Both the position numbers and the translations under genes were made by a program. DNA of 64,000 nucleotides from Eledone cirrhosa (lineage: Eukaryota): the NCBI GenBank assembly GCA_964016885.1, contig OZ024746.1:10292001-10356000 (forward strand), read 5' to 3'. The notes beneath the pieces are model-generated. The model searched no databases. It worked only from the letters and a program-made list of their open reading frames with translations, and was not told where the DNA came from. Positions 4,560-40,724 of the stretch are shown here, piece after piece. The first letter of the stretch is position 1. Each line of letters starts with the position of its first letter.

Positions 4560-5130
4560 GAACCTGATATAGATCAAGCTTTCATCCATCAGTGGCTGGA
4601 GAGTTTTGAGCTAAAAGCAGAGAGTGAGGGCTTCATTTTGGCTGCACAAGATCAGTGTCTTTCAACGTGCAACTTTCAAGCCAATGCGATCAGAAATGGA
4701 ACTGACTCAAGGTGTCAATTTTGCAATGAGCAGGTTGAAACAACTGACCACCTGGTTATATAGGCGACAAGGTATTAGCTGCCCAGGAGCTTGAATAGGA
4801 CAATATTTGCACTCAGTAATATGCAGGTTTTACAGCATAAAGTCAGATAAAATATTACAAGCACCACCCTGATTCTGTAACAAAGTGAGAATGTGACAAT
4901 CCTATTGGATTTTCCTATTAACACTGACAGAACGATCAAGGCCAATAGACCTGTGAAGGATCATAAAAAAAAAACATGCGTCTTAATTGATATGAGCATG
5001 CCATTAGACTGTAACATCTCTTCAAAAGAGTTCCGAAAGCTCAGTAAATATAAAACTCTGACACTTGAAATTGAGAAAATATGCATCTTAAGACCTGTAC
5101 AATACCAGTAATAGTTGGTGCACTGGAATT
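4560..5130 (+). mobile_element. R4/Dong-clade non-LTR retrotransposon 3' fragment (CCHC knuckle plus restriction-like endonuclease)
   Basis: Translates LKAESEGFILAAQDQ...CQFC...ETTDHL and ILLDFPINTDRTIKANRP...CVLIDMS...KLSKYK, with stops and frameshifts. Confidence 0.75.
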
Positions 5131-5357
5131 AAATTGGACAGCTTAATTTAAACTGTTAGAATTTTCTCAGAGGGTATAAAGTGGAATTTGGATTGATAAA
5201 ATGTTCCATATTGATCATGAAAAAGGGAAAATTCAATGAAAAAGAGAAAATTCAAAAGATGCCAAATGGAGAACATATCACTGTACAAGAAGAATTTGGA
5301 ACATCTTTGAATTTTCCGAAACACTACCAAACCTAATAACGCCAGTCTCTGGTTATA

Positions 5358-6943
5358 CAGTGGCGGACATGGAAGTAAGAACACTTTTTATTTTGCATGT
5401 AACTTTTTAGTTATTTTGTTTCTGTAACTTTGCAATATGCCAAAAGAAAGAGAAATAATTTCTCTATTGCTATCTCTGTTATTAAGCCAATTAGTAAAGC
5501 GAACCAGTTTTTATGGCTCATTAACGCAATTATAGCAAGATTTTGGCGGACGTGGAAGTAAGAACACTTTGCATTTCCTATGTTTACTTTCTTCATAGCT
5601 ACTCTAGCAAATTTTAGATTTGTATAATAAAATATGATGTTATATATGACATTTTTCTTTTTTCCAGCATTTTATTATTATGGGGAGAAAAAGAGATTTG
5701 AGTCCTACTAAACGGGCACGGATCGTCGAGTTGAGAAAGTTGAATTTTTCCTTCCGCGTGATTTCTAAGATGACAACATGCAGCTCCACTGCTTGTATTC
5801 AAGCCTGGCGCACTTGGGAACGTACAGGATCATACAAATTGAAGCCAAAACCAGGTCGAAAAACGGACGATCGCCAGGATAGAGCGATTGGCCGGTCATC
5901 AGAAAATGACCGAAAAAAGACTGCTGTCGAGATCTGCTCCGAAGTGAACACTTCCCACAACTCGGATATCTCAGTCAGAACTGTCCGTCGTCGTCTGCGC
6001 GAAATCGGACTCAATGGTCGCATCGCCAGACGTGTTCCGCTCATCTCACTCGCCAACCGTCGCAAACGACTTGCATTCACATACAAATATCTCGCATGGA
6101 CACCCGCTGATTGGCGCAAAGTCCTATTTTCAGATGAAAGTCTATTCACCATGGTCGGATCAGATGGCAAGACTTATGTCAGAAGGAGAACACACGAGGA
6201 ATTCGATGATCGGTGTTCTCAAAAAACGGTGAAACATGGTGGAAAATCGATCATGTTCTGGGGTGCATTTTCGGCTATGGGCACCGGTCCCCTTGTTCCC
6301 ATTTCCGGCAGTATGAACCAGAACACTTATGTCAAGATCCTGGAAGACCATTTGGAGCCCTATGTTGATGAAAATATGCCTTTAAATTGGCAATTTGTGC
6401 AAAACAATGCCCCGTGTCATTCTGCAAAGTCGGTTAAGCAATTTTTTCATGAGAAAAAATGGAAGGTCATCGATTGGCCTCCTCAATCGCCAGACTTAAA
6501 TTGTATAGAAAACCTGTGGCATTTAATAAAGCGCGAAATTCGACATCAAAACCCAAAAAACTTTCACGATCTGATGGCCACCATCAACCTGACATGGAAC
6601 AACTTCAGTTTGGACCAATGCATGAAATTAGTGGAAAGTATACCTAGATGTACTGCCGTGATCAAACAGAAAGGATATGCCACCAAATATTGATTTCGAC
6701 CATAATTCGAGCATTAAATGAAATAAAATAAAAGTGTTCTTACTTCCATGTCCGCCAAAATGTGGCTATAATTGCGTTAACGAGTCATAAGAACTGGCCT
6801 ATTTGACTAATTGGCTTAATAACAGAGATAGCGATAGAGAAATTATTTCTCTTTCTTTAGGTATATTGCAAAGTTGCAGAAACGAAATATCAAAAAAGTT
6901 ACATGCAAAATAAAAAGTGTTCTTACTTCCATGTCCGCCACTG
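5358..6943 (+). mobile_element. Full-length Tc1-family DNA transposon with IR/DR-type long TIRs
   Basis: TA TSDs at 5356-57 and 6944-45. ~215-bp TIRs start CAGTGGCGGACATGGAAGTAAGAACAC, and the terminal motif recurs at the inner ends (~5541-5570 and ~6732-6760). Confidence 0.95.
5680..6693 (+). CDS. Tc1-like DD34E transposase (second catalytic Asp replaced by Asn)
   Basis: 337-aa open ORF with an HTH region, VLFSDES, QNNAPCH (normally QDNAPCH), 34 aa spacing to SPDLNCIE, and a C-terminal GYATKY. Confidence 0.92.
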   Translation: MGRKRDLSPTKRARIVELRKLNFSFRVISKMTTCSSTACIQAWRTWERTGSYKLKPKPGRKTDDRQDRAIGRSSENDRKKTAVEICSEVNTSHNSDISVRTVRRRLREIGLNGRIARRVPLISLANRRKRLAFTYKYLAWTPADWRKVLFSDESLFTMVGSDGKTYVRRRTHEEFDDRCSQKTVKHGGKSIMFWGAFSAMGTGPLVPISGSMNQNTYVKILEDHLEPYVDENMPLNWQFVQNNAPCHSAKSVKQFFHEKKWKVIDWPPQSPDLNCIENLWHLIKREIRHQNPKNFHDLMATINLTWNNFSLDQCMKLVESIPRCTAVIKQKGYATKY

Positions 6944-6945
6944 TA

Positions 6946-8030
6946 GACTGATGTTACCACTACCATGTCGATCACAAGAAGAAACGCCTAAAACGGAAAT
7001 TCCTTTTTAAGTGCTAAACACCACTACAACAACAGCTCTTCGCACTACACCAACACAGACAGGACAACCTCACCACTGAGCCTATCAATACACTGACCAA
7101 TACCAGCCCATTACCCAAAACACGACCTCTCGTCATAAACTTAACAGAACTTCAACTCCTCAGTCTCAACTCGAAATCCATATCAATACAACTGGACGAC
7201 AAAGTAAAACTTGACCTTGAAACCAACTGCCTATCACCTCAAATGGTTATCTTTTATCAACACCACCACTACTGTGACAAACACCTCCACTAAATTTCCC
7301 ACATACCACCTTGACCACCTACTCAATCCACTCCCAGCCAACTGTGACCTCGGTCTCAAACAACAGACTCAAGCAGTCTATTTTTACCATCTTACAGAAA
7401 CAAATGAGGATTTCTCCAAACCTCTCCAGGATACACCACATTTTAAAAAACTAGAGAGAGAAGGACCTTGTATACCTTGCTTCCAATAAAGGGAAAGTGT
7501 TTTGAGCTATCACTCGTGACACCTAGCATTTGGACACTTCAGCAATGTTGGATTATATTCCAAAATAACATAACATCAACCCAGATTGAAGACTGCATTA
7601 ACACTGCCTGGGCTGATATCTGCAGATGAAGACAACTTCCTAACAAACAAAAAACTACAGACTACCAAAGTTCTACCACTCACAAAATCAGATCCTCAAA
7701 CCTATACTCTCTGCTTTTCATGGACATGTCAGCAACTCTGATATGGTTATCCAAAGACACTGTCAACTTCAGCCAGGTCAAATCAAACTTAATAGATTCA
7801 CATTTAACATGTGCTTCTTGAAGTTAATGCACTTCAGCAAAAAAAATAACCACGGTAATCTGCAGGGAAGGACCCTTCACTGCAAGGACACCTATTAAAA
7901 ATGCAGCCAAAGGACACCACCACCAATGCACACTGGCAAACTGCCCCATTTGAGACATACAAGCCAGTAGGTATATGTGGTTACACTGTGCCAAATGCAG
8001 AGATTTATATATTGGTAGTACTGTAGACCT
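6946..8030 (+). mobile_element. Decayed Penelope-like element (GIY-YIG endonuclease remnant) that hosts the Tc1 and Gypsy insertions
   Basis: Near 7985-8030 it reads CAKCRDLYIGST (GIY-YIG second motif) and is cut at the LTR start. The AC-rich sequence appears to continue left of the Tc1 TSD. Confidence 0.55.
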
Positions 8031-8422
8031 TGTAGCGACCCCTAGGGCTGGAACTCAGAACTTATAAGAGTTGCGTCCCTTTGTGACGGTCGTAACCCCT
8101 AGTGTCACATCCATGAGCTAAACAGAGTTACATGGGGACTATATATGTGAGAGCGTGAGACCATACGCTCTCTCACTTTCCATTCACTGCAGCTGAAGAG
8201 ATGACTTCTGCCTTCTCTCTCTTCTTTACACGCTCCAGTCTTGGAGTAGTCGAGATGCAGCTCACCAACAGCCTACAGCCTACTCACTACTCGTGCTAAA
8301 ATATATGTATTGTTCCATTATTGACTTTTATGAAGTAAAACTTTGTACAAACACGCACAACCATTCTTATTCTTTCTAAAAAATATTACAAGTAATTTGT
8401 TTATTAATACCAACCTTCTAAA
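8031..8422 (+). repeat. 5' LTR of a Gypsy element
   Basis: Starts TGTAGCGAC and is followed directly by a PBS-like TGGTGACCCGA (8424-8434, resembling tRNA-Trp PBSs). I saw no partner 3' LTR in the window. Confidence 0.65.
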
Positions 8423-8829
8423 GTGGTGACCCGAAAAGAAGTGGTATTAGATAAACAAAAAAAAAAAAACAATTACTATAAAAAGAGAAAAAAAAACTCT
8501 TATTGATTCAGATATGGCTGCATTCACTAACATCAACAACTTTTTTCCTAAACTTTCTTGCTAAAATTTTTGATGTTGTCAAGATGGCGGCTTTCGTCTT
8601 CAAAAATTTTTTTGGCACGAAACATCTTGGTTTTTGTTTTAGGCTCGCAGAAAATGTATTATTAATGCCATTGTTTGATTAATCACTCTATTGCACATTA
8701 TTTCGGAGGCATTCTTTTTCCTGTCCAGTTGTTTGACAGAGAAAAACAAGTGGATTTATTTTCTTTTTTCCCCTCGGGTCCGAAATATTTTTTATACGGA
8801 CACGTTTTGGCATCTCATACTTCTAAGGT

Positions 8830-11623
8830 CCTTGCCGCTGTTTCTCAGGCAGCCCAGGCCACACCTGGCCATGCCACCTGCGCGGCAACTCCAACAGACA
8901 GCTCAGCGATTATGGCCATACAGAAAGCCATTCTCGAACTCACCCTAGAGCTACAGAAACTGAAGGATTCTAGCAGTTCGCGCTCGCGCAGCCGCAGTAG
9001 AGCTTACTCTTTTAGACACCGCCCCAGGTCACCAGCTTCATCTTTATGTTGGTACCACGAGCCTTTTGCCGAGAACGCGAACCATTGTGTTCAACCTTGT
9101 TCGTTTCTGAAGTCGGGGAACGCCAGAGAGGTGCGTTGACGGCGGCGGCTAACCTCAGTATAAAGCCACCAAACCGCCATTTCTTCATCAAGGACCTTAT
9201 GTCAGGGAGAGGCTTCCTTGTGGATACAGGAGCCTCCTGTAGTATTTGGCTGGTCCATTGCCTAAAAGATACACCTGTGGAGTCATCCGTTACTCTGCAG
9301 GCCGTTAACCACTCGCCTATAAAAACGTACGGACAAATCTCGCTTCCTCTCAAATTCCTAAATCTTTGTAGGGATTTTAAATGGATTTTACGGTCGCTGA
9401 CTTGCCATAGGAGCGGATTTCCTCCACAATTTCTTTTACTGTGGACGTCAGTGGCCAACGCCTGGTGGATGACATACTGGTTTTTTAATTCGTGGCTGGA
9501 AAGCCAATGCTCCAACGGTCAGCCCCATATTCTTCATCGCTGCCGCTGGCGACACCTACCATTCGTTGTTAGGTTCTTTCCCGGAGCCCACCGATGGAAA
9601 TTTTCGAGTCACTCAGCCAACTCAATCAACCGAACATTTCATTTCCGCCACCGGTGCTCCAGTGTTTTCACGTCCACGCCGTTTACCAGCAGACAAATTA
9701 AAGGCAGCACGGTCCGAGTTCAATCATATGCTGCAGCTGGGCATTATTCGCCCATCTACGAGTCTTTGGGCTTCACCATTACATATGGTGCCCAAGTCTT
9801 CTGGCGACTGGAGACCCACTGGGGATTATAGGAGGTTAAACGCTATGACCGTCACGGATAGATATCCAATCCCCCATCTCCAGGATTTCGCATCTTCATT
9901 GCAGGGTTGTAAGATTTTCTCTAAACTAGATTTAGTGTGAGCTTACACCAAATTCCGGTCAGGAAGAAAGATATTCCGAAAACAGCAATTACAACTCCTT
10001 TCGGATCCTTCGAATTTTTTACCATGCCTTTCGGACTCAGGAATGCCGCTACCACTTTTCAGCGGTTCATAGACGAGGTCACTCGTGGTTTGGACTTCAT
10101 TTATGCATATATAGACGATCTTCTTGTCGCTAGTTCCTCTCCAGAAGAGCATATGCGTCACCTGGACCTTTTATTTAGCCAACTCCAGGATTACCGTGTT
10201 CGAGTGAATCCTGCAAAGTGTGTTTTTGGTTCCGCTTCACTGAATTTTTTAGGTCACATCATCGACGCAGAGGGTATTTGACCCCTTCCTCAGCGAGTTA
10301 AAGCTATACAGGATCTACCTCTGCCTACTACACTTCACCAGTTACGTAACTTCTTAGGCCTAATCAATTTTTATAGACGTTTCGTTCCTCATTGTGCATC
10401 CCTTACCGAGATTTTGAAAAAAATCGTCGTAAGAAGAATGAGGATATTTCCTTGACACAAAGACAGCTCAAAGGTTTCCAGACTGCCAAGACAACACTTG
10501 CTAGTTCATCTTTGCTAGCCCACCCAGTACCAGAAGCCAAGCTTTCGCTTTGTGTTGATGCATCTGATACCGCTGTGGGAGCAGTTTTACAACAGTATAA
10601 CGCTGGAAAACAACAACTTTTGGCATTTTTCTCCAGCCAGGAAGCTGAAACCAGCAGAAACTCGTTACAGCACGTTTAGTCAGGAGTTGTTAGCCATATA
10701 TCTGTCGTTGAAACATTTTTCTCATATTCTTGAGGGAAGAACTTTTACGGTTTTCACTGACCACAAACCTCTTACCTTCGCTTTGAGGGCTAAAGCCGAC
10801 AAATATTCACCCAGAGAGAGACAAGGCACCTTGATTACATTTTGCAATTTACTAATGATATACAGCACATTGCTGGCTCACTTAACACAGCTGCAGACGC
10901 ATTGTCACGTTTAACAATCAGCTCGATTTCGTCATCCCAGGAGATCGATTTAAGTCAAACGACCAACCTGCACTCGAATCGTTGGACACTTCATCACCCG
11001 AGTTTGCGACTTGCAACTTGAAATATCTGCCCTTGTCGACCACCAACAGGCAGATCCTATGCGACGTATCAACGGATTCACCACGACCTTGTGTTCCTGA
11101 GACTCACCGTCAAATTGTGTTCCTTGCTTTGCACAGCATTTCTCACCCAGGAATTTCAGCCACAGTAAAGCTCATAACAACTAGATTTTTCTGGCCCAAT
11201 ATGAGGCATGAAATTACTGTCTGGTGCTGTTCCTGCACACAGTGTCAAAAGTCTAAAGTCCACAGACACATCCGGACTCCACTTGGTACTTCCAGTACAC
11301 CAGATGCTTGTTTTCAACACATCCACATCGATATCGTTGGACCTTGCCCATTCAGTAGTGGATATTCTTACCTTTTGACCTGCATTGATCATTTTTCGTG
11401 ATGGCCTGAAGCCAACCCCTTAAAAAACATTACCACTGAGACTATAGCGTGTGCCCTGGTATCAGGGTGGATTACCCGCTTTGGCGTACCAACAACAATC
11501 ACCACAGACCGTGGTAGACAATTTGAATCTCATCTCTTCTCAGAGCTGATAAAAATCATTGGTGCTCAACGAATCCGGACCACAGTTTATCATCCTGCTT
11601 CGAACGGAATGGTGGAACGTTTG
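8830..11623 (+). mobile_element. Ty3/Gypsy gag-pol remnant (frameshifted, 3'-truncated in integrase)
   Basis: Gag CWYH...C...PC knuckle, protease [32 protein letters not shown], RNase H VDASD/FTDHKPL, and integrase H-HPG-C-C, HIDIVGP, TTDRG, ASNGMVER. Domain order is PR-RT-RH-IN. Confidence 0.95.
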
Positions 11624-11735
11624 TGGATTTTGGAGAGGAAGTAGATGGCGGGGGTGAGGGGTGTGCAGATAAAGTTGGAGGTGGTGGGAGGTAAGAGGAA
11701 CGAGTGACAAGGTGTTGGATGCCCAATCCACACCA
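11620..11735 (-). mobile_element. Short Penelope-like RT fragment, inverted
   Basis: The reverse strand reads TPAIYFLSKIHK, homologous to TPTIYFLPKLPK at ~13013 on the + strand. Confidence 0.6.
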
Positions 11736-11741
11736 TAAAGC

Positions 11742-12777
11742 GACCATCCTGGAGCCACAACAATAAGAGACCATCCTAGAGCCACAACAATAAGAGACCA
11801 TCCTGGAGCCACAACAATAAGAGACCATCCTAGAGCCACAACAATAAGAGACCATCCTAGAGCCACAACAATAAGAGACCATCCTAGAGCCACAACAATA
11901 AGAGACCATCCTAGAGCCACAACAATAAGAGACCATCCTAGAGCCACAACAATAAGAGACCATCCTAGAGCCACAACAATAAGAGACCATCCTAGAGCCA
12001 CAACAATAAGAGACCATCCTAGAGCCACAACAATAAGAGACCATCCTAGAGCCACAACAATAAGAGACCATCCTAGAGCCACAACAATAAGAGACCATCC
12101 TAGAGCCACAACAATAAGAGACCATCCTAGAGCCACAACAATAAGAGACCATCCTAGAGCCACAACAATAAGAGACCATCCTAGAGCCACAACAATAAGA
12201 GACCATCCTGGAGCCACGACAATAAGAGACCATCCTGGAGCCACCGACAATAAGAGACCATCCTGGAGCCACAACAATAAGAGACCATCCTGGAGCCACA
12301 ACAATAAGAGACCATCCTGGAGTCCCCGACAATAAGAGACCATCCTGGAGCCACAACAATAAGAGACCATCCTGGAGCCACAACAATAAGAGACCATCCT
12401 GGAGCCACAACAATAAGAGACCATCCTGGAGCCACAACAATAAGAGACCATCCTGGAGCCACAACAATAAGAGACCATACTGGAGTCCCCGACAATAAGA
12501 GACCATCCTGGAGTCCCCGACAATAAGAGACCATCCTGGAGCCACAACAATAAGAGACCATCCTGGAGCCACAACAATAAGAGACCATCCTGGAGCCACA
12601 ACAATAAGAGACCATCCTGGAGCCACAACAATAAGAGACCATCCTGGAGCCACAACAATAAGAGACCATCCTGGAGCCACAACAATAAGAGACCATCCTG
12701 GAGCCACAACAATAAGAGACCATCCTGGAGTCCCCGACAATAAGAGACCATCCTGGAGCCACAACAATAAGAGACCA
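11742..12777. repeat. 27-bp minisatellite, ~38 copies
   Basis: Unit GAGACCATCCT(A/G)GAGCCACAACAATAA is repeated head-to-tail without spacers. Confidence 0.98.
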
Positions 12778-12779
12778 AG

Positions 12780-12992
12780 CCACACTGTAATAATGTGGTC
12801 GTGTACGTGTCAACAAAAAGCACCCAGCACACTCTGTAAAGTGGTTGGCATTAGGAAGGGCATCCAGCCATAGAAACCAAGCTAAAATCAGTTGTGTGTG
12901 TGCAAAACATGATCCTCCGCCCTGTCTCACAATGGGATAACTCATCTAACCCATAGTACCACAGAAAATGGACATTAAACGATGATGATGAT
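12780..12992 (+). repeat. RTE-type 3' tail / SINE-like repeat
   Basis: GGTTGGCATTAGGAAGGGCATCCAGCC...TGGACATTAAAC(GAT)n, shared with 44385-45050 and 55772-56345. Confidence 0.8.
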
Positions 12993-13004
12993 ACACCCTG
13001 AAGA

Positions 13005-13870
13005 AAAGCACCACCCCTACTATCTACTTCCTCCCCAAACTCCCCAAACCCGACAACCCCGGCCGCCCAATTGTCTCCGCTTGCAACTGCCGAATTCATC
13101 TCCGCCTTTCTTGACTCCATCCTTGCCCCCCCCCCTCGTCATCACCCTCCCCTCCCACATCTCCGACACCAACCACGCCCTTCGCCTATTCAACTCCTTC
13201 ACCTTCCACCCGGCCCACAGCCCTTCCTCTTCACCCTAGATATCAAGTCGCTTTATACTGTCATCCCCCACGCCGACGGCCTACGTACCCTCAAGCACTA
13301 CCTTCGCACTCTCCCATCAACTCCACCCCCACCCTCCTTCGCCTTGCCGAGCTGGTCCTCACCCTCAACTGCTTCTCTTTCTCAGGTGAGTTTTACCAAC
13401 AGGTCACGAGGGTAGCCATAGGCACAAATTATGCCAACCTTTTCGTTGGCCATGTTGAGGCCCAAATCTTTGCCCAGTACACCAGCCCCACGCCCGAACT
13501 GTACGGTCGTTACATCGACGACTGTATTGGAGCCACGACCCTCACCCGAGAACAGCTCGAATCCTTTCTCTCCTCCTTCTGCTCCTTCCACCCCTCCCTC
13601 CACCTCTATCTCCATTACCCACGCCCACTTAGACATCTCCGTCGCCATCGACCCCTCCCTCGTCACCTCCGCCTTCTTCAAACCCACCGACTCCCACTCC
13701 TACCTCGACTTCACCTCCCACCCTACACACACTAAACACTATTCCCCACTCCCAACTCTTCAGGATCCGCCGTCTCTGCAGCCAAGATGCTGACTTTGAG
13801 TCCCAGGCCCTTTCCCTAGTCAGCCATTTCATACGCAGAGGTCCCCACCCCTATTCCTTTAGCCTTCAAC
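13005..13870 (+). mobile_element. Penelope-like element reverse transcriptase remnant
   Basis: YFLPKLPKPDNPGRPIVS, FTLDIKSLYT, YANLFVG, YGRYIDDC and FKPTDSHSYLDF across frameshifts. Confidence 0.85.
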
Positions 13871-14659
13871 CGCCCTGTTCCTCCCCCACACACATGCACA
13901 CACATATCTCCCACTAACACCACTAACACACTCCAAACGCGCACACACACACTAGTACACTACGCTCCCTCCACCGTACCCCCACCTTTTCACTCCCCGC
14001 TCCACCATCACCCCTTCACACACACACATGCCACTAACACCTCTACTAATGCACACACCCTCCCCACTCCACCTTTCACACCTACCCATCCTCTTCCCTG
14101 TCCACCGCACCTCTGCACACACTGACTTTCTCCACCTGCCATTCTCCTCTACTGCTGCTATGCCTTGACCCTCTGACCACTTCTCTGCACACACAGACAC
14201 ACAGTCCTCTCCACCTGTCATTCTCCTCTACCCTCATCCTGCCTTGACCCTCTGACCACTTCCTGTTGTGCACGCACCCCACATCTCCCGACTACCACAA
14301 CCATGGATTAAACACCATTGGCCATCGTTCCCACTATCTACTCCACCACATGGAAAATATCCAGCATCCCACCACACCCTCTACGGAACTACCTTAGGAA
14401 CTTACCCATGGACATACACTCACAAAAATTTTTTTAGAACCAAGCCACCTACATCCACACACACGTGCGTACCCCCACATATATACACTCAGCCTCCGGA
14501 ATCCTCTGACCCCTCCCCATCCACACGCACACCTTTTCCTGAACATGGAACCTAGTTCTTCCCCCAACTCTCACATTCACACACACCACCTTCAGCCCTC
14601 TCCCCACTCCACTTCTGCATCCGGCCACCACATTTGAGATTGTAGGTGCGCGTAGGTAT

Positions 14660-16880
14660 ATGAGTTTCCATTTGGCTCCATGTCTCGATGGAATTACGTC
14701 CGCGCAATTGACCCTGTGAATCTCATGAACCTCTTTTACTGTATGTTGCTGGCCAGGAAGGTACACGATATCTTGAAACTTGGCAGGTCAATCCTGATTC
14801 GCAAAAAGATGGACAATCCGCTCGGCCTGTCCAATTGGAGACCTCTAACGATATGTTCAGCCGTATATCGTTTATACACCAGGCTTCTTTCCAAAAGAAT
14901 GTATCAGGTAACCCTCCTGAACCCTGCCCAAAGAGGGTTCATCGATGCTGACGGCTCCAGTGAGAATTTATTCTTGCTACGACAGCTTCTTGGGCACAGA
15001 ATAGGAGGACCAGCGCGATAGAGGATTCAGCGGTTGGATGTTACCTTCTTAGATCTGGCTAAGGCTTTTGACACTGTTCCACATTAACTTGTGATTGCGA
15101 GCATGAGGAGGCTTGGCTTTCACAACCATTTGGTCGATGTCGTGAAGGGTCTGTGTGAAGGGTGCATCACAAAATTCTCGGTCGGAGCGGAAACGAGCAG
15201 AGCCATTGAAATCAATCGAGGTGTCCGGCAAGGAGACGCTCTCTCGCCCCTGCTCTTCAACATTGCCACAGATTCACTGATGGACGCCCAGTCTATCAGC
15301 TGTGGCATACAGGTTGGAGATGTAGGGTTCTCGAGCTTGGAGTACGCGGATGATAATGCCCTAGTAGCTGGCTCTCCGGTGGAGATGCAGCGTCTAGTTA
15401 CAGATGTGTGTCGTTCTACCAGGAGGTAGGGCTAGCAGTGAATATCTCCAAATGCGCGGGGTAAGTCTCCTCCAAAGATCGATGGAAACTAGCTCTTGAG
15501 GATCAAACCTGCAAAGAAATGTTCCTATTTAGGGGTCAAAGTCGTCCGTGGTCAAACTCACAGGATGAATGTTTCGGTGGAGCAGGTGTCGCAGTGTATC
15601 GATAAGATATGCAGAGCTCCACTGAAACCCCGGCAGAAATTCCATCTTATGCAGCAATTTTACCTGCCTAGATTGTTTTACACTCTATCGCAGGTTCTAC
15701 CTGCCCAGAGTAATCTTGAAGTGCTGGACACGGCTATTCGCACAGGGGCCCGTAGGATGCTAAATCTGCTTGATTCGACCACGGTTTCCTTCCTCCATTG
15801 TAGTAGACGTGATGGTGGATTAAATCTTTACCAACTGGCGAAGATGATACCTGCCATCGTGATTCGAAAGAATCTCCGTCTGCTGGACCCTAGATATGAC
15901 ACTATCTCGCTACACGGAATAGTGAGATAGCTTTACGCTACAGTCTTCCGCCAATTCTGCCGGGTGCAACCACATACACGCCTGGATTCCGCCGGGAACA
16001 CACCGAGACGTGGGCCTCTCAGCCCTTCCAGGGTGCGTGTGCAAGGTCGTTTAGGGACGACCAGATCGGCAACAATTGGCTGTTCCGCCCAGGTGCGATT
16101 TCTGAGGGAAGTTACTCGAGTTGTCTTAAATTACGAACCAATACGTTCCCCACCCAGGAATGCCTGCAGACACTGTAAGACAGCTGCGGAGACAATTGCC
16201 CACATCAGTGACCAGTGCCCTCTTTTGAAAAGAAAGCGTCTGGCCATGCATGACCAGCTATGTAAACTGATTGCGGCCGAGAGCATACGCTACGGATGGA
16301 GGGTGGGCTGGTAGCCTTCCTACCGTGTGGATGATACGAGGCTCATACCGGATCTGGTATTGAGGAGATCGGGGACTACGGTGATACTGGATGTCACGGT
16401 GAGATACGAGCAAGGCAGCGCCTTGAGTGACGCTGCGGCGGAAAAGGTGCGTAAGTACCGTCCATTGACTGCCCTACTAGCGAATGAAACATGTGGGAGA
16501 GTCGAGGTTCATGGCTGCCCCATCTAGACGCATGGGGCCTGGTCAAAAGCAGCTGAGTTTGTCTGTTCTTGTTACCGTGAAAAAATGCCTTTAAGAGGCT
16601 TGTGCCATGATAGCGACGTTAGACGTGCTGGATTGACGGACGAGATCCCGAGAATCCATTGGGGTCGGATGGACTGGTTTCATGTCAATGCGACTGGAAA
16701 GGGCTCCGGACGGACTCGTGGCTTGAGTCAAAGATCAATCCGGTTGATGCCGGCATGTCGGCACGTACGTGGGATGGGAGTCTCTGGGTACGATTGCGAG
16801 TCCCTCCACCGTGGCAGCCTGTCATCTGGTTCCCCGATGGTCCTATGGAACCCCTACCAGATCCGGGGAGTGATTGCCTC
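14660..16880 (+). mobile_element. R2-group (RLE-type) non-LTR retrotransposon, 5'-truncated and decayed
   Basis: RT motifs NWRPLTI, AQRGF, LDLAKAFD, GVRQGDALSP, YADD and YLG; knuckle CRHC...ETIAHISDQC; endonuclease IPDLVL...LDVTVRYE...KVRKY. Confidence 0.9.
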
Positions 16881-17184
16881 ATTTTTTTTTTGGGGGGGGG
16901 GGGGGGGGGGTTACACGACAGCCTCCAACTGAAAACTGCAGTGGGCCGCAAATCTCCGTTGCTGCCAACACCGATGCCAGGACAAAAGACAACACCAGCA
17001 CCAAAAGCAGCAACAGCAGAGCAAACAGCACCACCAACAGAGACCATTAAAACCACCCAGGGAGTCATCCAAACAAACTCACCCTCTCTTTCAAACACAC
17101 ACAGAACAACACTATCTGATGTAGAGTACAGAACTCTCCAAAGAAGGCGTAGAGTACGAAAACGACAACACAATGACGGCAGTG

Positions 17185-17745
17185 CAAATAAAGCTTTGGA
17201 TGAAATTCCTCCAAGAGATAAGTTTAGGATACATTCATTTACCCATGTAATTGATGCTCTTCACTCCAATCTAGACAGAAGAGCTATTGTGTATAGGAGT
17301 GGTGCTGACAATTTCTCGTTTTTAACTGATCTGCAAGCAATGAGGAAACAAATTCTCCATGGTGTCAAGAAACTAGAACAAGAATATCCAAAGGATGTTG
17401 ATCTCAGACTTGTTAAACTTTCCACTTATCAAACAGGCTCATGCAGAAAAAAGGTTTCAGCCACCAAGACATGTACCAGATAATAAAACAGAAGAAAATT
17501 CAGGCTGTTTTCTTAAATGTGGAAATAATTTTCACATTGTTCCTGTATTTGATGGTCATTAACTGTTCTGGAGAGAGAGAATTTTCTAGGCTGAAGAGGA
17601 GCAAAAGTGACCTTCGTTCAACAATGTCACAAAAGCGGCTGTCTGATCCGAGTATTCTCAGTATAGAAAATGATAAACTGCAGCATTGATTTTGATATCA
17701 TTGATGAGTTTACAGTCAGAAAAGCCCGAAGGAAGACGATCTGAC
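17185..17745 (+). mobile_element. hAT transposase C-terminal fragment (hATC dimerisation domain)
   Basis: NCSGEREFSRLKRSKSDLRSTMSQKRLS...SIEN. Confidence 0.8.
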
Positions 17746-18649
17746 ATTAAATAAACTACTGTAAATGTGTAAACAGGCCTTAACAGGGTAATATAAATAC
17801 ATGGCAATTAGACTGTTTTGTAAGCAGTCAACTTCTTCATCAATCATCATTGTATTATTTAAGATTGTTATTTTCAAATAAAGTTTAAGAATAAAAATGT
17901 TATCAATCTTCAAAGATTAAAACGTTACATGTTTAGATTTAATTACATGATGTTGACAGTAATGACTGTCCTGTCTGTTCTATTTTTAACATTTTGACTA
18001 TTTCATCATGTGACTTGTGTAAGACAGTGCTGGACGGGTTGGGGCTATGGTTAATATATAATAGCTTTGAGTTTGTTGCAGTGTACATATCTGACCTACA
18101 GCCCAAACAGTAAAATCCTGAATTTAACCATAAAACTCCCAAAAAACATTCCAGAACCCTGATAATTCAAACATTTGCCAAAAACTTGTTTTAAAAACTA
18201 ATGATTGATCAGGTAACACGTAATATTTTTACATCTAAATTTCCTGAGCATGTATGCCTGACTGCCTGTGTAAGCCTACCGGGCATACCTCCTTCAGCCC
18301 CCAAGTAAGAGGCCTCATAACTTAAATAGCACAGGGTCTCATTTGTCCTAAATCTAGCACCCACACCTTCAACAACACAGACACGACCAGAAATCATGCC
18401 TAACAAAAGAAACACATACAGACACCAACGACATATATACCCAGCTTTGTGCGACTAAAAAGGGCCAACAAATAACTTAAGGCCCTTGTAACACACAATC
18501 AAGACATTGGGAAAGAAGGAGAGATTTTAGGAGCCTGCACCTTCAAAATGCCCAAAACACTGCTGATAGTGCAGATGCTAATAAAAACTTACAAACTTAC
18601 AAAAACATTAGGGAGAGCTTTCCCGGCAACATGGGGGGGGGGGGGGGGG

Positions 18650-18920
18650 GGGGCTGTGAAAACCTCGAGTAGGCTTTTAAAGGAGTTCCTAATGGAAACC
18701 CCACCAATCATAGAGGTCGAACCACCCGACCTCCACAAGCCCCCGAGAGGTAAGTAAACCGTTCCTCTCTTCCCTTAACCCTGCCAACATGGCAATCCTA
18801 AGAGGAGGATGCATAAACATTCATAAAACTGGGGTTGTCCTGGAAGCAGAGTCACCTGCTAAACAAACTCAGGTCTCTAGATATGGATGTGATTGCCGTC
18901 AGCAAAACCATGATTTCAGC
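18650..18920 (+). mobile_element. Tx1/L1-like LINE fragment (ORF1 end and start of ORF2 APE domain)
   Basis: ATG at 18789, then GCINI...SWKQSHLLNKLRSLDMDVIAVSKT, paralogous to the copy at 19809. Confidence 0.65.
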
Positions 18921-19639
18921 TGAGGAGATATACAATGTCAGATTTGATGATCTTGGATGGCAACAGGCTAGCTTACCTGTTAGAAATGGTAGCCTTGGCT
19001 TCCAGTCTCGCTGGCTTTGATAGCTTTGCAGTTGCCTCACCGTAATCATTGAGAGTATAAGGCCAAGGTGTCACGTATGTAGCAATAAAACCCACCTAAA
19101 GGCCTTCTGCCCTCAGGGGTTGGCCAAAAAATTAAGGCCATCTCTCCTGCCTACGCCATTGGCTCTAACAAAGCAGCAGCAACAGTAGCAAGAGCACCAC
19201 CACCACCCACCACGCTGGAAGTAACGCTGGCACCACCACAAACAACACCAATGTCTATGGAGAACATTCCACTCCCGACCTCTCACAATTGGAGACGGAT
19301 TGTGATGAGGAGGGGTGGAAAACCACAAAAAATCCAGAAAAAAAGAGGGCAAAACAAATAAACAAAAAATCAGGGCAACGCCACCACCACCTACATTAGC
19401 CCCACTAACACCATCCTCAACTCCAACACCACAAAAACACCAATAACAATCCAAACAGAACCAAACCAAAATGTGCAACCACAACAGAATGACAAAACTG
19501 AAACTCACTACATAGCTTTAAACACAAACAATAAATGACTATTGCACTACATCCAACACCAGCATCGCAGAGAAAAAATTCACACCACCCACACATATAC
19601 AAATAACACTCATCTCACAAAAGACATACACAACTCTAA

Positions 19640-20535
19640 AAGAAAAATTCCCCAATGACATTGGATATTTCCCTGAAACTCTCTCTAGAAGATATACAGA
19701 CATCCTTCTGGAGAGGGCCACAACCAGTCAGAAGGATGGAGCAACCGTCCTTCCTTCAAAAGAACTGAGGTAAGTGGTCTTTCCCACCTTTTCTTACTCT
19801 TTTTCAACATGGCTTCTCTTGGGATAGGCAGTGTAAATGCACGGGGTCTGGGTTCGTCTTGGAAGCAGGGTCACTTGCTCAACGATTTCAGGTCGCTGAA
19901 TATAGATTTGGTGGCCATCAGAGAGACCAGAATCGCAGAGGCACATGCATTCACACCCATTTTCGTCGGCTATGATGTGTACCTATCCCAAGCCATCCGA
20001 GATCAGGGGGCAGAGTGGCAGTGTTGTTCAGGAGATGTCTGAATCTTGAGATACGGACCGTCATCAATGACACAAAAACTAAGTTGGAGGTACTGGACCT
20101 GACTAGTAGAGAAGTGCATGCTTTCAGGCAAGTGCCTGCCTACGCCCTGACAGGGACAGCACGGCCCACTTTAGTGTTAGTGGGTAACTGGAATGGAATC
20201 TTGGATGCACGCTGGGACTGTGTGAGATTAGCAGATAGGGGAGGAAGGTGCAAAAACCTTGCAAACCTGCTGAGACGTCTTCAACTGTCTGACAGGTACC
20301 TTCTGGATTTCCCGAATGTGGACATGGACAAACCACATTGGGTCATCCACATTGTATCTAGATAGGGTATTTTGTAGAGAAATAGATAGGTCTAGCATAG
20401 GCTGTCCCTAATTCAAGATAGTTGACTACACTGACCATAAATTTGTGATCTGTGTTATTGACTTAGATTGGCTTCATAGACAGGGACCTGAATACTGGAA
20501 GCTAAACGCCTCACTACTGGCACAGAAAGCCTGAC
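19640..20535 (+). mobile_element. Tx1/L1-like LINE fragment (ORF2 AP endonuclease)
   Basis: SVNARGL, AIRETR, LVGNWN, YLDR, TDHK and GPEYWKLNASLL motifs across frameshifts. Confidence 0.85.
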
Positions 20536-20599
20536 TGGATTAACAAATTAGTTAACATCTGTCCATTGTTCAACTGTGTCCTTGTGAAGTTCAAGCACT

Positions 20600-20860
20600 A
20601 TTACAAAACCTAATTGTAACCTATCATTGGATGAAGATATGATTCCGACAAAAAATAAACTTTCCTTTATACAATACATATAGGAAAAGCCCATCAAATG
20701 GGGAACACAGTCATTTTTGGTATGTGATAGTGACAAAATGTGATAGTAATGCCGAAATTTATACTGGCAGACGAGATGACCGTCTTGCCATACCGGAGTC
20801 GCAAGAAATTTGTCTCACGCAAGAGTTTGGTGGACAAAATCACAGCCTGCATACTGTTTT
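20600..20860 (+). mobile_element. piggyBac transposase internal fragment
   Basis: LSLDEDMIP...IQYI..KPIKWG...LVCDS...NAEIYTG. Confidence 0.75.
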
Positions 20861-20924
20861 TATACCACAACCATGTTGGCACAGATTAGTAAGGGAAGAG
20901 GATGCTCAGAGGCCATAGTATCTA

Positions 20925-21440
20925 TAATAAGGACAGGATGAAAGAAGTTTAGGGAGCTGCTTCCTCTGTTGACAACGAAGGGTTTCTCCCTGTGAACGAA
21001 AGGTCGGTTGTATGATGCCTGTGTGAGATGCACGATGCTGCATGGTAGTGAGACATGGACAGCAAATGCGGAGGATATGCGACAGCTGGAGTGAAATGAA
21101 GCAAGAATGCTCCAATGGATGTGCAATGTCAATGTGCGTGAACAACCAAGCATAGACGAGTTGAGAGTGAAACTGTATAAGAGGGATAAACTGTGTGCGG
21201 GAGACAAGACTACGTTAGTATGGACATGTGATGCACATGGAAGATGACCGCTGGGTGATGAAGTGCCAAAACATCCCAGTGGAAGGAAGACCACAAAAAA
21301 CATGGCCGGAGGTGGTGAGAGCTGACCTCAAATCGCTGAAGCTCACAGAGGAGATGACGAGGGACCGTAACGAATGGAGAGATGCTGTGCTGAAGAGGAC
21401 CCGTCCCACCCTTGCAAGGAGGGAAAAGTGGGCGTAAAAT
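20925..21440 (+). mobile_element. RTE-clade LINE 3' ORF fragment
   Basis: KKFRELLPLL...KGRLYDACVR..MLHGSETW...GHVMHM...GRPQKTW...DRNEWR. Confidence 0.85.
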
Positions 21441-21669
21441 GATAGTTTTGTTTTGAACTGTTTCAGCTTCACAATAGGAAGGTCTCCACAACCTGAGAAA
21501 ACAGTAATTAGCAACTCAGGAGACTTTTCCAATCAAGGAAAAACCCACCACACAACATACACCTGGTGGCATTCAAAGACAGGACCATTACCATGATCCG
21601 GAATATTAAATTCAAGAGACCAGCACAAGGAGGTGACAGGTGCATACCTATGAAAATTAGCTTCTGCAA

Positions 21670-21900
21670 TCAAGGAAATAATTACTTTTGAAAACAATAA
21701 GATTTTCAAAATCAACTAAAGTATGAATTGCAAATCAAGAAACAATCTGTTGTGTTAGCAGTCAACAATGTAGAGAGTGCTACATTGGAGAAACAGGAAC
21801 AGGCCTATATGATAGAATTCATACACAACAAATTAGACATCCCTCTATAGAAATGTAAAAGATATTTTGGAAATATTTTCTCACAATTCTCATGATGAGG
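21670..21900 (+). mobile_element. Penelope-like GIY-YIG endonuclease remnant
   Basis: Reads MNCKSRN...QQCRECYIGETG. Confidence 0.6.
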
Positions 21901-22459
21901 ATTATAATATTGAATTAGATAGTGATTTTACTATATATATACACACACGTACACACACACCCACACACAATTATGACATTCTCACATGACACTCATGTAG
22001 ACACGTTAGTAAAGAGAATTGTATGCCTACATATAAACAAATCTTGTTTATTCTGCCACTTGACATTGATTTTACAGAGCCTTGATTTTTTTGGAATGCA
22101 AGGACATAGCAAAAAAAACTAACAAAATTCTATGCCTAATCACGTGATCATCATCAACCAATCAATTTGTATGTTAAACAGATACCAATTTGAACTATGT
22201 TCTCTCAATAAAACTCCACTCAGACGCAAGACAGTTACAACATAGCTTCATATCTTTCCTTTTCACTTAACTTTTGAAAATGGTGAAACTGGTAAAGTTA
22301 CTATAAATAAATCTTCTTAAAGATTCCAAACGCATCTATATATATATGGCTGGTGTTAGGAAGGGCATCCAACCAGTATATATAGTACTGCCAAAAACTA
22401 TGAGCACAACAATTAAAATGATGATGATGGCCACTGACACTCGAGGTGCTTAGTAATCA

Positions 22460-22775
22460 ACATGTCTTCAGAATATAATCATCTAGCTGCTGTTGTGGAG
22501 AGACTTTGTGCCGGCCACAAAGCCAAGGAAATCATAGAATGGTTTAAATACCCTAAAATCATGGTCTACTTGCAAAAGGCATATGGGACCTCAGACCACA
22601 ACACAAGACTCATAAGAAGCGCTCTGGTGTGACCAGGACACCTGAGTTTGTCACTGACGTTGTCAAGGAGAACCCTAGAAAAAGCATGAGGAAAAATCGC
22701 CATGGGTATGGGCACCAGCAGGTGAACAGTCGGACATAGTGTCAAGAACTTGAATTATAAATCTTGTGCTTAAGA
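22460..22775 (+). mobile_element. Tc1/mariner (maT/DD37D-like) N-terminal remnant
   Basis: AAVVERLCAGHKAKEIIEWFKYPK.MVY...TPEFV...ENPRKSMRK. Confidence 0.45.
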
Positions 22776-22978
22776 AGCACAGAAGGAAGGAAAGGATTGG
22801 ATTTAAGCTGAACCCCTCACCCCTATTTTATGTCTGAGAAATGGGCAAAAAACATAAGCCAAGGCCGCTAATCAACACAATAGGGAGGTTTTGAAATTCT
22901 CATGAATAGAGAAAATAATTACAAAGTTTTAATATTTTGATATTTAAAATGTTTTAAGTGTTGTTTAGAGGTTAGTTT

Positions 22979-24839
22979 GGCGATCCTTGGTTTTAGTGTC
23001 GTAAATTATCATCATCGCCATTCAATTATTAGCTATACCCACTACACGATACATCACGATACGCTGCTGCTGCTGCTGCTTGATTTTTACATATTCATTT
23101 TCTTACATGCTTCATTTTTACACGAAAAAACATTAAATTTTTTAACAGAATAAATATTTATTAAAATATGCTTCATTTTTACATGAATATTTATTTACGT
23201 TCATAATAGAAAATATATTAACAGAGAAAATTAGATTTTTGATTGATTTTTTGAACAAAATAAATATTTATTTACAGTTTTTAACAGAAAAAATATTGCT
23301 GCGAAATACATTTTTTTTTTTTAACAGATTTAGTTTTTAACAGAAAAAAAATTTCTTTAAACAATATATTGTTGCGATATACAGTTTTAAATCTTTTCAA
23401 AACATTTACCTTCACCAGTTGGATACGTGGCATTGCGCCATCGCCACTCAAACTCCCTTAAATACAAGCAGGTGTTGGATGACAATTCAGTTCAGCGCTG
23501 TCTCTCATTCGCTAAATTGTCACGCATCGCAATAGTTATTCGAAAGAAACATGGCTGGAAGACCGCATGCGGCACAATTTATTGTTGAGAATATTAATTC
23601 ACCAGAAGAAACTTTAAATTTGAATTTAACACACCGTGAAATGCATTTAATTACCGCAAATAATCGCTCTACTCTGGAATTTCTGGCTAGCAACCGGTTA
23701 ATTTCAAATACTGTTAATTGTGCTGCCTGCAATATTTTATGTTCGTTTGTGACTTTCAAAGACGGGATTGATGGCTTTAGATGGAAATGTAAGGCATGCA
23801 ACTTTACGCAATCGATTCGTTGTGGATCATTTTTTACTAGAAGTCATTTGAATCTACAACAAATTCTCGATTTCATCTACTATTGCCGTTTTGACACCGA
23901 AAATGTTGTTATTCCAAATCAAATTCGCTGTAACAATACAACTACCATTACCGACTGGTGCAATTTTATGCGTGATGTATGTAGTGAATGGGTTGAGCAA
24001 AATCCGGTGATATTCGGTGGTCTTGATTCTAACGGAATACCAATAACTGTACAAATTGATGAGAGCAAATATTTTCATCGTAAATATGCTCATGGGCTCT
24101 GGCATGAAGGACATTGGGTCATTGGCGTAATTGATACTAATAATCCCCACAATATTTTTCTCCAAGAAATCCTTGATCGTGCTGCTGAGACTCTGCTGCC
24201 TATCATTGAAAGGCACTGTGCAAATGGATCTACGATCCATACAGATGAGTGGCGGGCATACCATCAAATACCAAATTTGCCTGGTCGTTATACACATCTG
24301 TCAATCATTCAAAGCATTTCGTTGATCCCATATCAAGTACACACATGCAAAATATTGAGGGGATGTGGTCTCATGCCAAAAAGAAACTAAAACGCATCAA
24401 TGGTACCAGCCGACCACTATTTCAGTCGTATTTAAGGGAGTTTGAGTGGCGATGGCGCAATGCCACGTATCCAACTGGTGAAGGTAAATGTTTTGAAAAG
24501 ATTTTCAACTGTATATCGCAACAATATATTGTTTAAAGACATTTTTTTTCTGTTAAAAAACTGTAAATCTGTTTTAAAAAAATGTATTTCGCAGCAATAT
24601 TTTTTCTGTTAAAAACTGTAAATAAATATTCATGTAAAAATGAAACAGTGTTTCTGTTAAAAAACTTAAAAACTAAATAAATATTCATGTAAAAATGATG
24701 AAACATGTAAGAAAATGAACATAAGAAAATGAACATGTAAAAATCAAGCAGCAGCGTATCGTGACGTATCGTGTAGTGGGTGGAGCTAATAATTGAATGG
24801 CGATGATGATAATTTAGGACACTAAAACCAAGGATCGCC
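22979..24839 (+). mobile_element. Merlin (IS1595/ISXO2-like) DNA transposon, full length
   Basis: 8-bp TSD GTTAGTTT at 22971-78 and 24840-47; termini GGCGATCC...GGATCGCC; long TIRs at 22979-23465 and 24428-24839. Confidence 0.95.
23551..24536 (+). pseudogene. Merlin DDE transposase with a single frameshift near 24300
   Basis: Zn ribbon CAAC...CKAC, VQIDESKY and IHTDEWRAY in the first frame; VNHSKHFVDP...QNIEGMWSHAK...YLREFEWR in the second frame. Confidence 0.9.
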
Positions 24840-25180
24840 GTTAGTTTTACAAATCCTAGGGGATAGTAGAAAGAGATCAGCTAGAACACTGTATAAGGAT
24901 TCAGAAAGTCAAGTTTTACACACATTCCTATAAATGATTTCATAATTAGGAAATTAAAATAAGATGGAAATTTACAGTTTATACCTATACAGAGTTAGCT
25001 GGCCTCTTACAGGGTTTTATCTTAAAGTTTTTTCTTGTTTTAATGATAGTCCTATCATGAAAGTCAATGTGAAATGATGAGCCTTGCTCAAGAATATAAT
25101 GAACCACATAGTTCAATAATCAAATTCATGGATGGGTCCAACACACTAAGCATTAGACAAAACGAAATGTGTTTGTAACA

Positions 25181-26354
25181 TTAAGTTGTTCAGAATATTA
25201 ATGCAAGTTTTATATTTGTAATTGTTTCAACATGTTTTACGTGTGATAAATCTATTTTAAGCTTCTTTAGGGCTTTTACTACGTAATCTGTTTTTAATAT
25301 AAATTACATTTTTGTCAATTTTCAGATCAGTCAAGATGTCAAAACGAGATTTTTGCCAAATTTATTTCTGTAAGTTTAAGCTCGTCCACAGTGCAGCAAA
25401 GCACAAACTTCTAGAAACATCAATGAAGTTTGGGAAGTGCTAAAGAGTGCACAGTGCAATGTGGGTGTCAAAAATTCTATCGTAGTCAATGCCTTATTGA
25501 AGATAAGGAAGGCAGCAGAGGTCATTCTGCCTTTGGCAATTATGAATTCAAGGCTTTGCTGGAAGCAAATCTTCATAACTCTTCGAGAGCTTGCAGGAGA
25601 GCTAGATGTATGCTTTGGAACAATTTCTGAATATTTGAACCAAATTATAAGATCAAAAAACCTTAAAAAATGGGTGCCACACAAACTGATCGATAACTAG
25701 AAAAATTACCATAATGAAGACTGTTCTTCCCTTTTTTATGCAACAAAAGCATTTCTTGATTGCATTGTAACGTTCAGCACAGTGGTTGGACTGAGATAAA
25801 GCTTCTAAACATTTCCCAAAGACAGTTGCACCAAAAAGGTTCATAGTTACTGTTTGATGGAGTACAACCAGATTAATCCACTACAGCTTTCTGAGTATCA
25901 CAGCAGTGAATATTGTCACAAAATTGATGAGATGCATCAAACATTGCAGCATATGGGCCCAGCATTGGTCAATAAAAAAGGTGCAATCCTCTTGCATAAG
26001 AATGCTTGATCACACATCACATAATCAATACTCCTGAAGATGAATAAATTGTGCTACAAAACTGTCTTATCCAACAGACTCACTGGAGTCTTTACCAATG
26101 ACTTTATCCAACATTACAATAACTTCTTGCAGGGAAAAGTCTTCAACAATACAGCTACAAAAAATGCCTTTGAAGAATTCATTGACTCCAGAACTTCAGA
26201 ATTCTATATTACCGAAATAAATATACTTGTTTCTTTTGGCAAAATGTGTAAATTCTAATCGTTTTTATTTCGATCAATAAATTTTTTTCTGGGCTGAGAG
26301 ATGTAATTTTAAAGTTAATGTTTAAAAAAACTGCATTAATATCTGAACAACTAT
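25181..26354 (+). mobile_element. Decayed mariner element
   Basis: Imperfect ~30-bp TIRs (AGTTGTTCAGAATATTAATGCA / TGCATTAATATCTGAACAACT), WVPHKL motif, IHYSFL and ILLHKNA remnants; many stops. Confidence 0.8.
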
Positions 26355-26407
26355 ATATTATATATATCAAACACCTTGTCTTAACACAATAAAAAAAAAA
26401 AAGTATG

Positions 26408-26615
26408 CTATGAGGTATACCAATGCAAGCAACCTCCTTTTTGACTTGTTATAAGCCATAATTGATCAACTGAGTGGAAAATTGTAACACTAGAAATATT
26501 AGAACAATAAACAGATGCCATTAAATAACCTGAGAACAGATCCCAAAGTCCAAGGATGTTTTCATCAAATGATACAAAGGTCTTATCAAATACTTGAGCC
26601 GATGGTGTTTTCAAG
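26408..26615 (-). CDS. PALB2: PALB2-like gene, exon 9 (last coding exon, WD40 end)
   Basis: Acceptor AG at 26617-16. Reads ...LGLWDLFSG...LITSQKGGCLHWYTS*, resembling human IAIWDLLLG...LLAGQKDGNIFVYHYS*. An alternative donor is possible at 26420. Confidence 0.78.
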
Positions 26616-27218
26616 CTAAGAAAGCAAGAGAAAAAGAGTTAAATAACTATGAAAAACACAAATTTATAAAATATCAAATACATACAAACATCATCATCTT
26701 CATCACCTCCACCATTTTACATCTATTTTCCATGCTTGCATGGACAGCTTATCTTATTCTGTGACTAACTAAACCAGTCAAATGGCCAAATACATTCTAT
26801 TTTGGCATAGTTTCTTCAACTGGAAACTCTAACACCAACCATTTTACAGAAGTTATATGACTGATAAGAAAATACACATTTATCTACCAAAATATACATA
26901 TCAGTGGTGATGAAGTATTGGCCAAGTCAGTAGAACATAAAACTACTTTGCAGTATTTGTTTTAGCACACTGCAGTTGTGTCAAAGATATGACAACCACA
27001 CCTAGTGCTGATGCCACAATAAAACACACCCAGTATACTTTGTAGAGTATTAGAATGCATGTAAGCAAGATGCAGTCCCTAGTCCATCTGAGAGGTCAGG
27101 GGCTCTGGCTAAGTACTAAGTCTGATGACCCATCTTACCCTTGCTGATAAGGAAAGCAGGCATATGATGATGATGATGCTGCTGCAATATAGTTAAAATA
27201 AAATTATAGCATACACAC

Positions 27219-27346
27219 CTTGCATTAAAGTGTGGAATGTTTTCATATGAAAGTAGTTTGTTGACTGTCAATGTAGTTGGATTAAAAGCAACAAAGCACC
27301 CTACTTCAAAGTCTTCTTGGAATAACACTGGAAATATTACATGACC
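27219..27346 (-). CDS. PALB2: PALB2-like gene, exon 8
   Basis: AG/GT bounded, phase 0->2. GHVIFPVL...FVAFNPTTLTVNKLLSY resembles human GLLFIVL...LIVINPKTTLSVGVMLY. Confidence 0.82.
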
Positions 27347-40696: not shown

Positions 40697-40724
40697 AGCA
40701 ATAAGTAGGAGATAATACTGTAAA

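Follow-up and report, generated by a model that had tools for sequence, protein, structure and literature searches.

A one-strand transposon nest behind PALB2 in Eledone cirrhosa, a candidate read-through piRNA cluster

The transposon block between PALB2 and its converging neighbour

We analysed a 64-kb stretch of the 3.0-Gb genome of Eledone cirrhosa (contig OZ024746.1, positions 10,292,001 to 10,356,000), called the window below, with coordinates given relative to it. Directly behind the minus-strand gene PALB2 lies a 22-kb nest of transposons that inserted separately (4563-26354), the block, which comprises about 13 lineages, nearly all of them antisense to PALB2. On the other side the block faces a plus-strand gene for an ABCC-type ABC transporter (Pfam ABC_membrane), which by its motifs we take to be ABCC1; it ends at about window position -900, ~5.4 kb from the block, and because the two genes converge the block occupies the gap between their 3' ends. 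At the right edge of the block the outer end of a mariner element lies 54 bp from the PALB2 stop codon, directly downstream of the last exon, where a preliminary description of this DNA had put the distance at about 50 bp. The eight coding exons of PALB2 align without stops to the Octopus orthologs, so that coding sequence and splicing of the host gene are intact, with identities to O. bimaculoides and O. vulgaris of 50-51% in the long exon and 71-89% in the WD40 exons. The protein's C-terminus falls at 26411, and a search of 264 kb (the window with 100 kb on each side) turned up no additional PALB2 exon beyond the block. We considered a GT donor at 26520, which would have made the block a PALB2 intron, and rejected it, as the exon continues to the true C-terminus. 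PALB2 is therefore complete and the block is not a coding intron, which rules out that form of the long-intron alternative raised in the preliminary description.

The strand bias of the block was measured by several routes. We scanned 180 stop-free open reading frames (ORFs) from both strands of the block with Pfam (182 minus two that run through a minisatellite), and transposon domains appeared exclusively on the plus strand: zf-RVT, DDE_3, RVT_1, RT_RNaseH, Integrase_H2C2, rve, IS1595 and, weakly, the hAT dimer domain. Reading through stops as X added the piggyBac domain DDE_Tnp_1_7 and the mariner domain Transposase_1, in plus frames only. We also built a library of transposon proteins from ORFs in fetched genome sequence, seeded by Pfam-labelled ORFs and ORFs classed by eye; class names such as R4, Tx1, CRE, maT and Sola are provisional, being assigned partly by motif. 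With this library tblastn placed 11 of 11 block elements, from 10 classes, on the plus strand, a count taken after removal of one mirror hit within the Merlin inverted repeat, and a slightly earlier library without window-derived proteins gave 12 plus calls, with that mirror hit alone on the minus strand. Weaker routes contributed seven further plus-strand pieces (the first Penelope, the hAT, the CRE scrap, the maT, the Tx1 ORF1 scrap and two RTE-tail SINEs, short interspersed elements), and the combined count is 18 of 19 elements on the plus strand (binomial p=7.6e-5). The claim that about 12 lineages lie almost entirely on one strand, antisense to PALB2, thus stands, as does its extension to DNA transposons. 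The short minus-strand Penelope piece (~115 bp) described earlier was recovered by blastn and blastx; a doubtful minus-strand piggyBac tail was not recovered.

This bias is real and well above background. As controls we took 56 windows of 20-22 kb (20 random, by seeded picks, 10 anchored on Gypsy, 16 anchored on R2 and 10 flanking; ~1.1 Mb in all), a small set searched with a library that is thin for DNA transposons; a seventeenth R2-anchored region was left out because it is itself a one-strand nest (C18, below). The number of classes on the majority strand was five or fewer in all 56 controls, compared with 10 in the block, and of the five controls with at least eight elements, none had as much as 90% of them on a single strand. 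Neighbouring elements of different classes shared a strand in 64 of 121 cases in the non-flanking controls and in all 10 cases in the block. Transposon coding sequence is matched over 10.6 kb of the 22-kb block; in PALB2 none of 13.1 kb is covered, and in ABCC1 4.3 of 44 kb (four matches plus, eight minus). SINE-tail motifs were too few for a test of bias, and several lie on the minority strand in the sister nests described below.

The block was assembled by repeated insertion. Tc1 and Merlin each carry inverted repeats and their own target duplication (TA and 8 bp, respectively) and hence inserted individually. Identities to other copies indicate mixed ages: 97-99% for Tc1, 84-90% for Gypsy, 84-89% for Penelope, at most 81% for R2 and ~70% for mariner and the first Penelope. 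Genome-wide, the Tc1 family has 11 near-full copies at 97-100% identity, the block copy included, out of 15 candidates scored, and the chance that one of 11 copies falls within a given 22 kb is 8e-5. Few older relatives of this family, which occupies the block and 10 other sites, were found, and a recent horizontal arrival is possible. Short Merlin copies with internal deletions occur at high contig depth, which suggests amplification of miniature inverted-repeat elements. Relatives of the block R2 abut 28S rRNA at the customary insertion site, model position ~1888-1891, and an Rfam search of the window returned no RNA family, rRNA included, so that the block copy sits outside its ribosomal DNA (rDNA) target. 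Elsewhere in the genome, R2 copies lie within dispersed rDNA fragments on several chromosomes (regions L057, L063, L072 and L075), inserted at that same position of the large-subunit model. R2 copies in general were considered as markers of one-strand nests and rejected as such: most of 17 R2 regions are mixed or hold few classes, and rRNA pieces turned up in four of six tiles scanned. Six DNA searches with pieces of the block recovered, among the best candidates scored, other copies of single elements only and none across the junctions. We also checked the assembly over 14300-31500 with short-read contigs of one sample, probably the same as the assembly's, and these span 16408-18272, 21444-22146 and 25299-26336. 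CpG decay was considered as an indirect sign of transcription. Raw pairwise counts put CpG loss higher in block copies; corrected for non-CpG change, the block copy ranks 6 of 27 for R2, 3 of 10 for Tx1, 1 of 10 for Merlin and 6 of 9 for RTE, and we do not use CpG loss as evidence. In octopus, gene bodies are methylated and transposons are not (PMC9476566).

Sister nests elsewhere in the genome

Comparable nests occur at other loci (Table 1). The sister loci were chosen from match lists for R2, Merlin, mariner and the parvovirus protein NS1 that showed co-oriented neighbours, and the host gene was not a criterion; tandem duplications inflate the counts in some of them. At C18 ~2 kb separate the edge of the nest from the VRR-NUC exon of FAN1, a minus-strand gene upstream of it. 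The C12 nest begins ~2.4 kb past the stop of plus-strand NAF1, and the C25 nest follows a plus-strand FKBP-type TPR gene, starting ~1 kb past what appears, by eye, to be its last exon. In each case the elements lie antisense to the host gene. Of the four sister nests with a resolved upstream edge, three thus start behind a gene end, in antisense, the fourth being C2, and because of this the read-through idea gains support independent of PALB2. For the C25 host gene, atlas and PDB comparisons point to an FKBP-type TPR protein only and a homolog search was empty; its TPR was also the only find when 150 nest-edge ORFs were scanned with Pfam. The gene may be FKBP6/Shutdown, a piRNA co-chaperone. 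The C2 nest flips orientation at ~345,423 kb beside an AT-rich stretch with many CpGs, where a divergent promoter is possible.

The four larger nests (C18, C12, C25 and C2) carry parvovirus-like inserts co-oriented with the nest. NS1 gave 29 matches; of the 11 viewed in context, a selected sample, 10 lie in one-strand nests. At a nesting junction in C18 (L049:7044-9998) a Gypsy pol frame continues stop-free into the N-terminal portion of a parvovirus-like NS1, which looks like a chance in-frame join. A ~10.4-kb tandem unit in the C25 nest includes the end of the Tc1 family present in the block.

Table 1. Elements of the block, exons of PALB2 and sister nests. Positions are those of the window, except for the nests (contig:position); for the nests the third column gives plus/minus element counts. 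LTR, long terminal repeat; LINE, long interspersed element; RT, reverse transcriptase; aa, amino acids.
Feature	Position	Strand or count	Evidence or content
R4/Dong LINE, 3' fragment	4563-5340	+	Pfam zf-RVT; blastp E 6e-42 to R4 library protein; part past ~5130 by eye only
Young full-length Tc1	5358-6943	+	215-bp inverted repeats, TA duplication, 347-aa ORF; Pfam DDE_3, HTH_Tnp_Tc3_2
Old Penelope fragment	6960-8030	+	Up to ~70% to other copies over long matches
Gypsy LTR element, 5' LTR to truncated integrase	8031-11620	+	Pfam RVT_1, RT_RNaseH, Integrase_H2C2, rve; 84-90% to other copies
Penelope scrap, sole confirmed minus-strand element	~11619-11720	-	blastn; blastx frame -1
27-bp minisatellite (38 copies), then RTE-type SINE tail	11738-12990	+	Repeat and motif analysis
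Penelope RT fragment	12990-13860	+	84-89% to many copies
5'-truncated R2, outside rDNA	14609-16890	+	Up to 81% to other copies over long matches
Tx1 ORF1 scrap	16930-17050	+	blastn/blastx to Tx1 ORF1 from C18 nest region (L050)
hAT transposase C-terminal fragment, weak call	17140-17750	+	Pfam Dimer_Tnp_hAT, E 0.004
Tx1-type LINE pieces (ORF1, endonuclease)	18300-20540	+	Library comparison
CRE-like scrap inside Tx1 stretch	~18900-19020	+	78% to plus-strand CRE piece in C2 nest
piggyBac transposase fragment	20551-20880	+	Pfam DDE_Tnp_1_7, E 2e-7
RTE LINE 3' end, very high-copy family	20882-21450	+	tblastn; summed contig depth ~60,000 vs ~10 in unique bins
Penelope 3' (GIY-YIG side) fragment	21515-21900	+	Library match E 4e-10; right edge by eye
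RTE-type SINE/LINE 3' tail	22345-22430	+	Motif count
maT/Tc1-like transposase 5' fragment, weak call	22430-22790	+	Library protein match, E 3e-4 to 7e-4
Full-length Merlin	22979-24839	+	Long inverted repeats, 8-bp target duplication GTTAGTTT; Pfam IS1595; 91% aa to best other copy
Old mariner with inverted ends	25184-26354	+	Pfam Transposase_1; best other copies ~70% over most of length
PALB2 last coding exon and stop	26408-26617 (exon 26617-26411, stop TAG 26410-26408)	-	tblastn, 87% over the last 69 aa of PALB2 from O. bimaculoides and O. vulgaris; Pfam PALB2_WD40 on Octopus PALB2 protein
Upstream PALB2 exons, within 27221-35983	~27221-27346, 28445-28540, 29063-29287, 30580-30756, 32595-32777, 34250-35497, 35939-35983	-	Alignment to Octopus PALB2
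C18 nest	C18:15,010,001-15,091,000	24+/2-	10 classes, at least 79 kb; includes Helitron, piggyBac, R2, Gypsy, R4, Tx1, maT and parvovirus-like inserts
C12 nest	C12:8,970,001-9,098,500	4+/44-	13 classes, 125 kb; four parvovirus NS1 matches; capsid ORFs with PLA2-like domain
C25 nest	C25:562,000-720,000	1+/21-, 0/7, 1/13	Three sampled parts
C2 nest	C2:345,363,000-345,431,000	31+/0-	13 classes, 60 kb
C27 nest	C27:17.59-17.65 Mb	0/10 (minus-strand)	
C3 nest	C3:332.06-332.10 Mb	0/9 (minus-strand)	

Read-through from PALB2 as a probable source of piRNAs

From its sequence, we think that the block works like, and probably is, a uni-strand cluster of PIWI-interacting RNAs (piRNAs) fed by read-through from the gene in front of it. 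Some PALB2 transcripts, in the germline and perhaps in the soma, would skip the nearby poly(A) signals (AATAAA at 26269, ATTAAA at 25044) and run across the block, with PALB2 as the presumed source of the read-through RNA. The resulting long minus-strand RNA would then be processed by the PIWI machinery into primary piRNAs, which would be antisense to R4, Tc1, Penelope, Gypsy, R2, hAT, Tx1, piggyBac, RTE, maT, Merlin and mariner, and their targets would include the very high-copy RTE family and Merlin with its many short derivatives. We propose that antisense insertions are kept because they add silencing guides, and that sense insertions are lost because they supply no useful guides and can terminate the transcript. 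Piwi-domain exons, with AGO and PIWI unsorted, are present at four loci in the genome, and Piwil1 and Piwil2 are conserved in molluscs (PMC6128900).

The architecture and the antisense bias partly bear out the earlier description of the block as a candidate uni-strand cluster; the Drosophila cluster flamenco, then offered as the model, has its own promoter, and the mammalian clusters known as piC-DoGs are closer. In these pre-pachytene clusters of mouse, human and hamster, dense antisense transposon fragments lie right downstream of a host gene whose coding sequence is intact (PMC11615739), as at PALB2. They differ from the block in that the host here is a cephalopod, that DNA transposons and many non-LTR clades dominate where L1 and endogenous retroviruses dominate there, and that the block is known from sequence alone. 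Another likeness is to the read-through core clusters of Aedes, Culex and Anopheles, which start directly after upstream genes, run in one direction and trap antisense viral inserts (bioRxiv 10.1101/2022.08.22.504762, which also gives flamenco its own promoter); the sister nests with their co-oriented parvovirus-like inserts recall those of Aedes. The mosquito inserts are non-retroviral and from several families, whereas here only parvovirus-like ones were sought, and the host genes differ. With flamenco and flamenco-like clusters the block shares a one-strand antisense archive of transposons that is predictable from genome sequence (PMC11400887). Unlike flamenco, which is Gypsy-rich and hundreds of kb long, the block is 22 kb, mixed in class and abuts a gene end, and it holds one Gypsy (3.6 of the 22 kb) among its lineages. 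Within the same phylum, the clusters of Arion, Deroceras, Lymnaea and Crassostrea are transposon-rich and, in slugs, mostly uni-strand (PMC11615739, PMC12506671, PMC6128900), and a top slug cluster has minus-strand piRNAs over dense plus-strand transposon fragments (PMC11615739). R2 and DNA transposons, both present in the block, are enriched in oyster and snail clusters, R2 149-fold in oyster class 1 clusters (PMC6128900). Host-gene read-through, which we propose for the block, is not described for these molluscs in the available parts of those reports, and the reports give no cephalopod cluster.

Several points weigh against a read-through cluster. There are 18 minus-strand AATAAA hexamers between 3000 and the PALB2 stop, the first of them the one at 26269, and read-through therefore has to ignore them. 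The sister nests were selected since their match lists already displayed co-oriented neighbours, no gene was found at the edge of the C2 nest, the upstream edges of the C27 and C3 nests were not reached, and a region on C23 is mixed (6+/5-) and not a nest. No parvovirus-like insert was found in the PALB2 block, and some small controls with few classes are one-sided too (gyp4, 7+/1-; R2_C386, 0/7). In mouse gonocytes the transposon content downstream of genes is not generally linked to read-through (PMC11615739), and the simple trap model is contested in Drosophila (PMC10588112).

It is also conceivable, but in our view unlikely, that the block is a long PALB2 3' untranslated region (UTR), an intron in that UTR or a read-through zone with no piRNA role, purged of sense insertions whose poly(A) or splice signals harm PALB2. 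An antisense bias of transposons inside introns is already known, and ABCC1 offers a mild version of it, with eight antisense to four sense matches. Such purging would account for direction but not for density or variety: matches are absent from the PALB2 introns and few in ABCC1, the bias of the block is 18:1 rather than 2:1, rare elements (the R2 outside rDNA and the 11-copy Tc1) are concentrated in the block and viral inserts in the sister nests, and those nests are as long as 80 to 125 kb or more. A piRNA source driven by something other than PALB2, either its own promoter or transcription from both sides given that ABCC1 points into the block, seems to us rather improbable. The near end of ABCC1 and the C2 nest, which lacks an edge gene and flips as a divergent promoter would have it, would fit such a source, but the first element follows the PALB2 stop after just 54 bp, and the junction on that side is CpG-poor like a gene body, with no CpG-rich stretch of the kind a promoter might show. 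The block elements are moreover sense to ABCC1, and read-through from that gene would therefore yield no silencing guides. That the pattern comes from chance, from same-direction insertion of elements into one another, from duplication or from mis-assembly is very improbable: the genome offers ~136,000 windows of block size, LINE-rich controls can be one-sided and tandem duplications swell some sister-nest counts, but the full strand agreement of different-class neighbours in the block against about half in controls, the searches that found nothing over junctions and the contigs that bridge three junction stretches (probably from the same sample) all speak against it.

Beyond the PALB2 locus we advance a wider proposal, and only tentatively: octopods may keep an archive of transposons and viruses in read-through clusters attached to 3' ends of genes for housekeeping and genome maintenance (PALB2, FAN1, NAF1 and the FKBP-type TPR gene that may be FKBP6/Shutdown), and the PALB2 cluster may have been seeded by the mariner in the 3' UTR and still be catching invaders such as the 11-copy Tc1. 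If true, read-through piRNA clusters would occur in all three bilaterian branches and be readable from genome sequence alone. As an origin of piRNA clusters, host-gene read-through has been shown in mammals and mosquitoes. In the open-access literature we found no report of read-through piRNA clusters in molluscs, no title on cephalopod piRNA clusters among the matches listed and no paper on endogenous parvoviral elements in octopus. The PALB2 locus and its sister nests supply exact coordinates, strands and host genes, and the young, low-copy Tc1 makes a clean test case for the trap model in a 3-Gb genome.

Other features of the window

Protein-like frames at 3-1271 on the minus strand gave no Pfam or representative-protein match and nothing better than E 0.5 in PDB, with short repeat matches only. 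At 50772-50950 on the plus strand lies the first exon of a small-GTPase gene, which looks RAB40-like (the piece has no Pfam match), head to head with PALB2 and ~11-15 kb from it. A tRNA-like SINE stands in tandem copies with a 208-bp period at 40002-40700, near the presumed PALB2 promoter.

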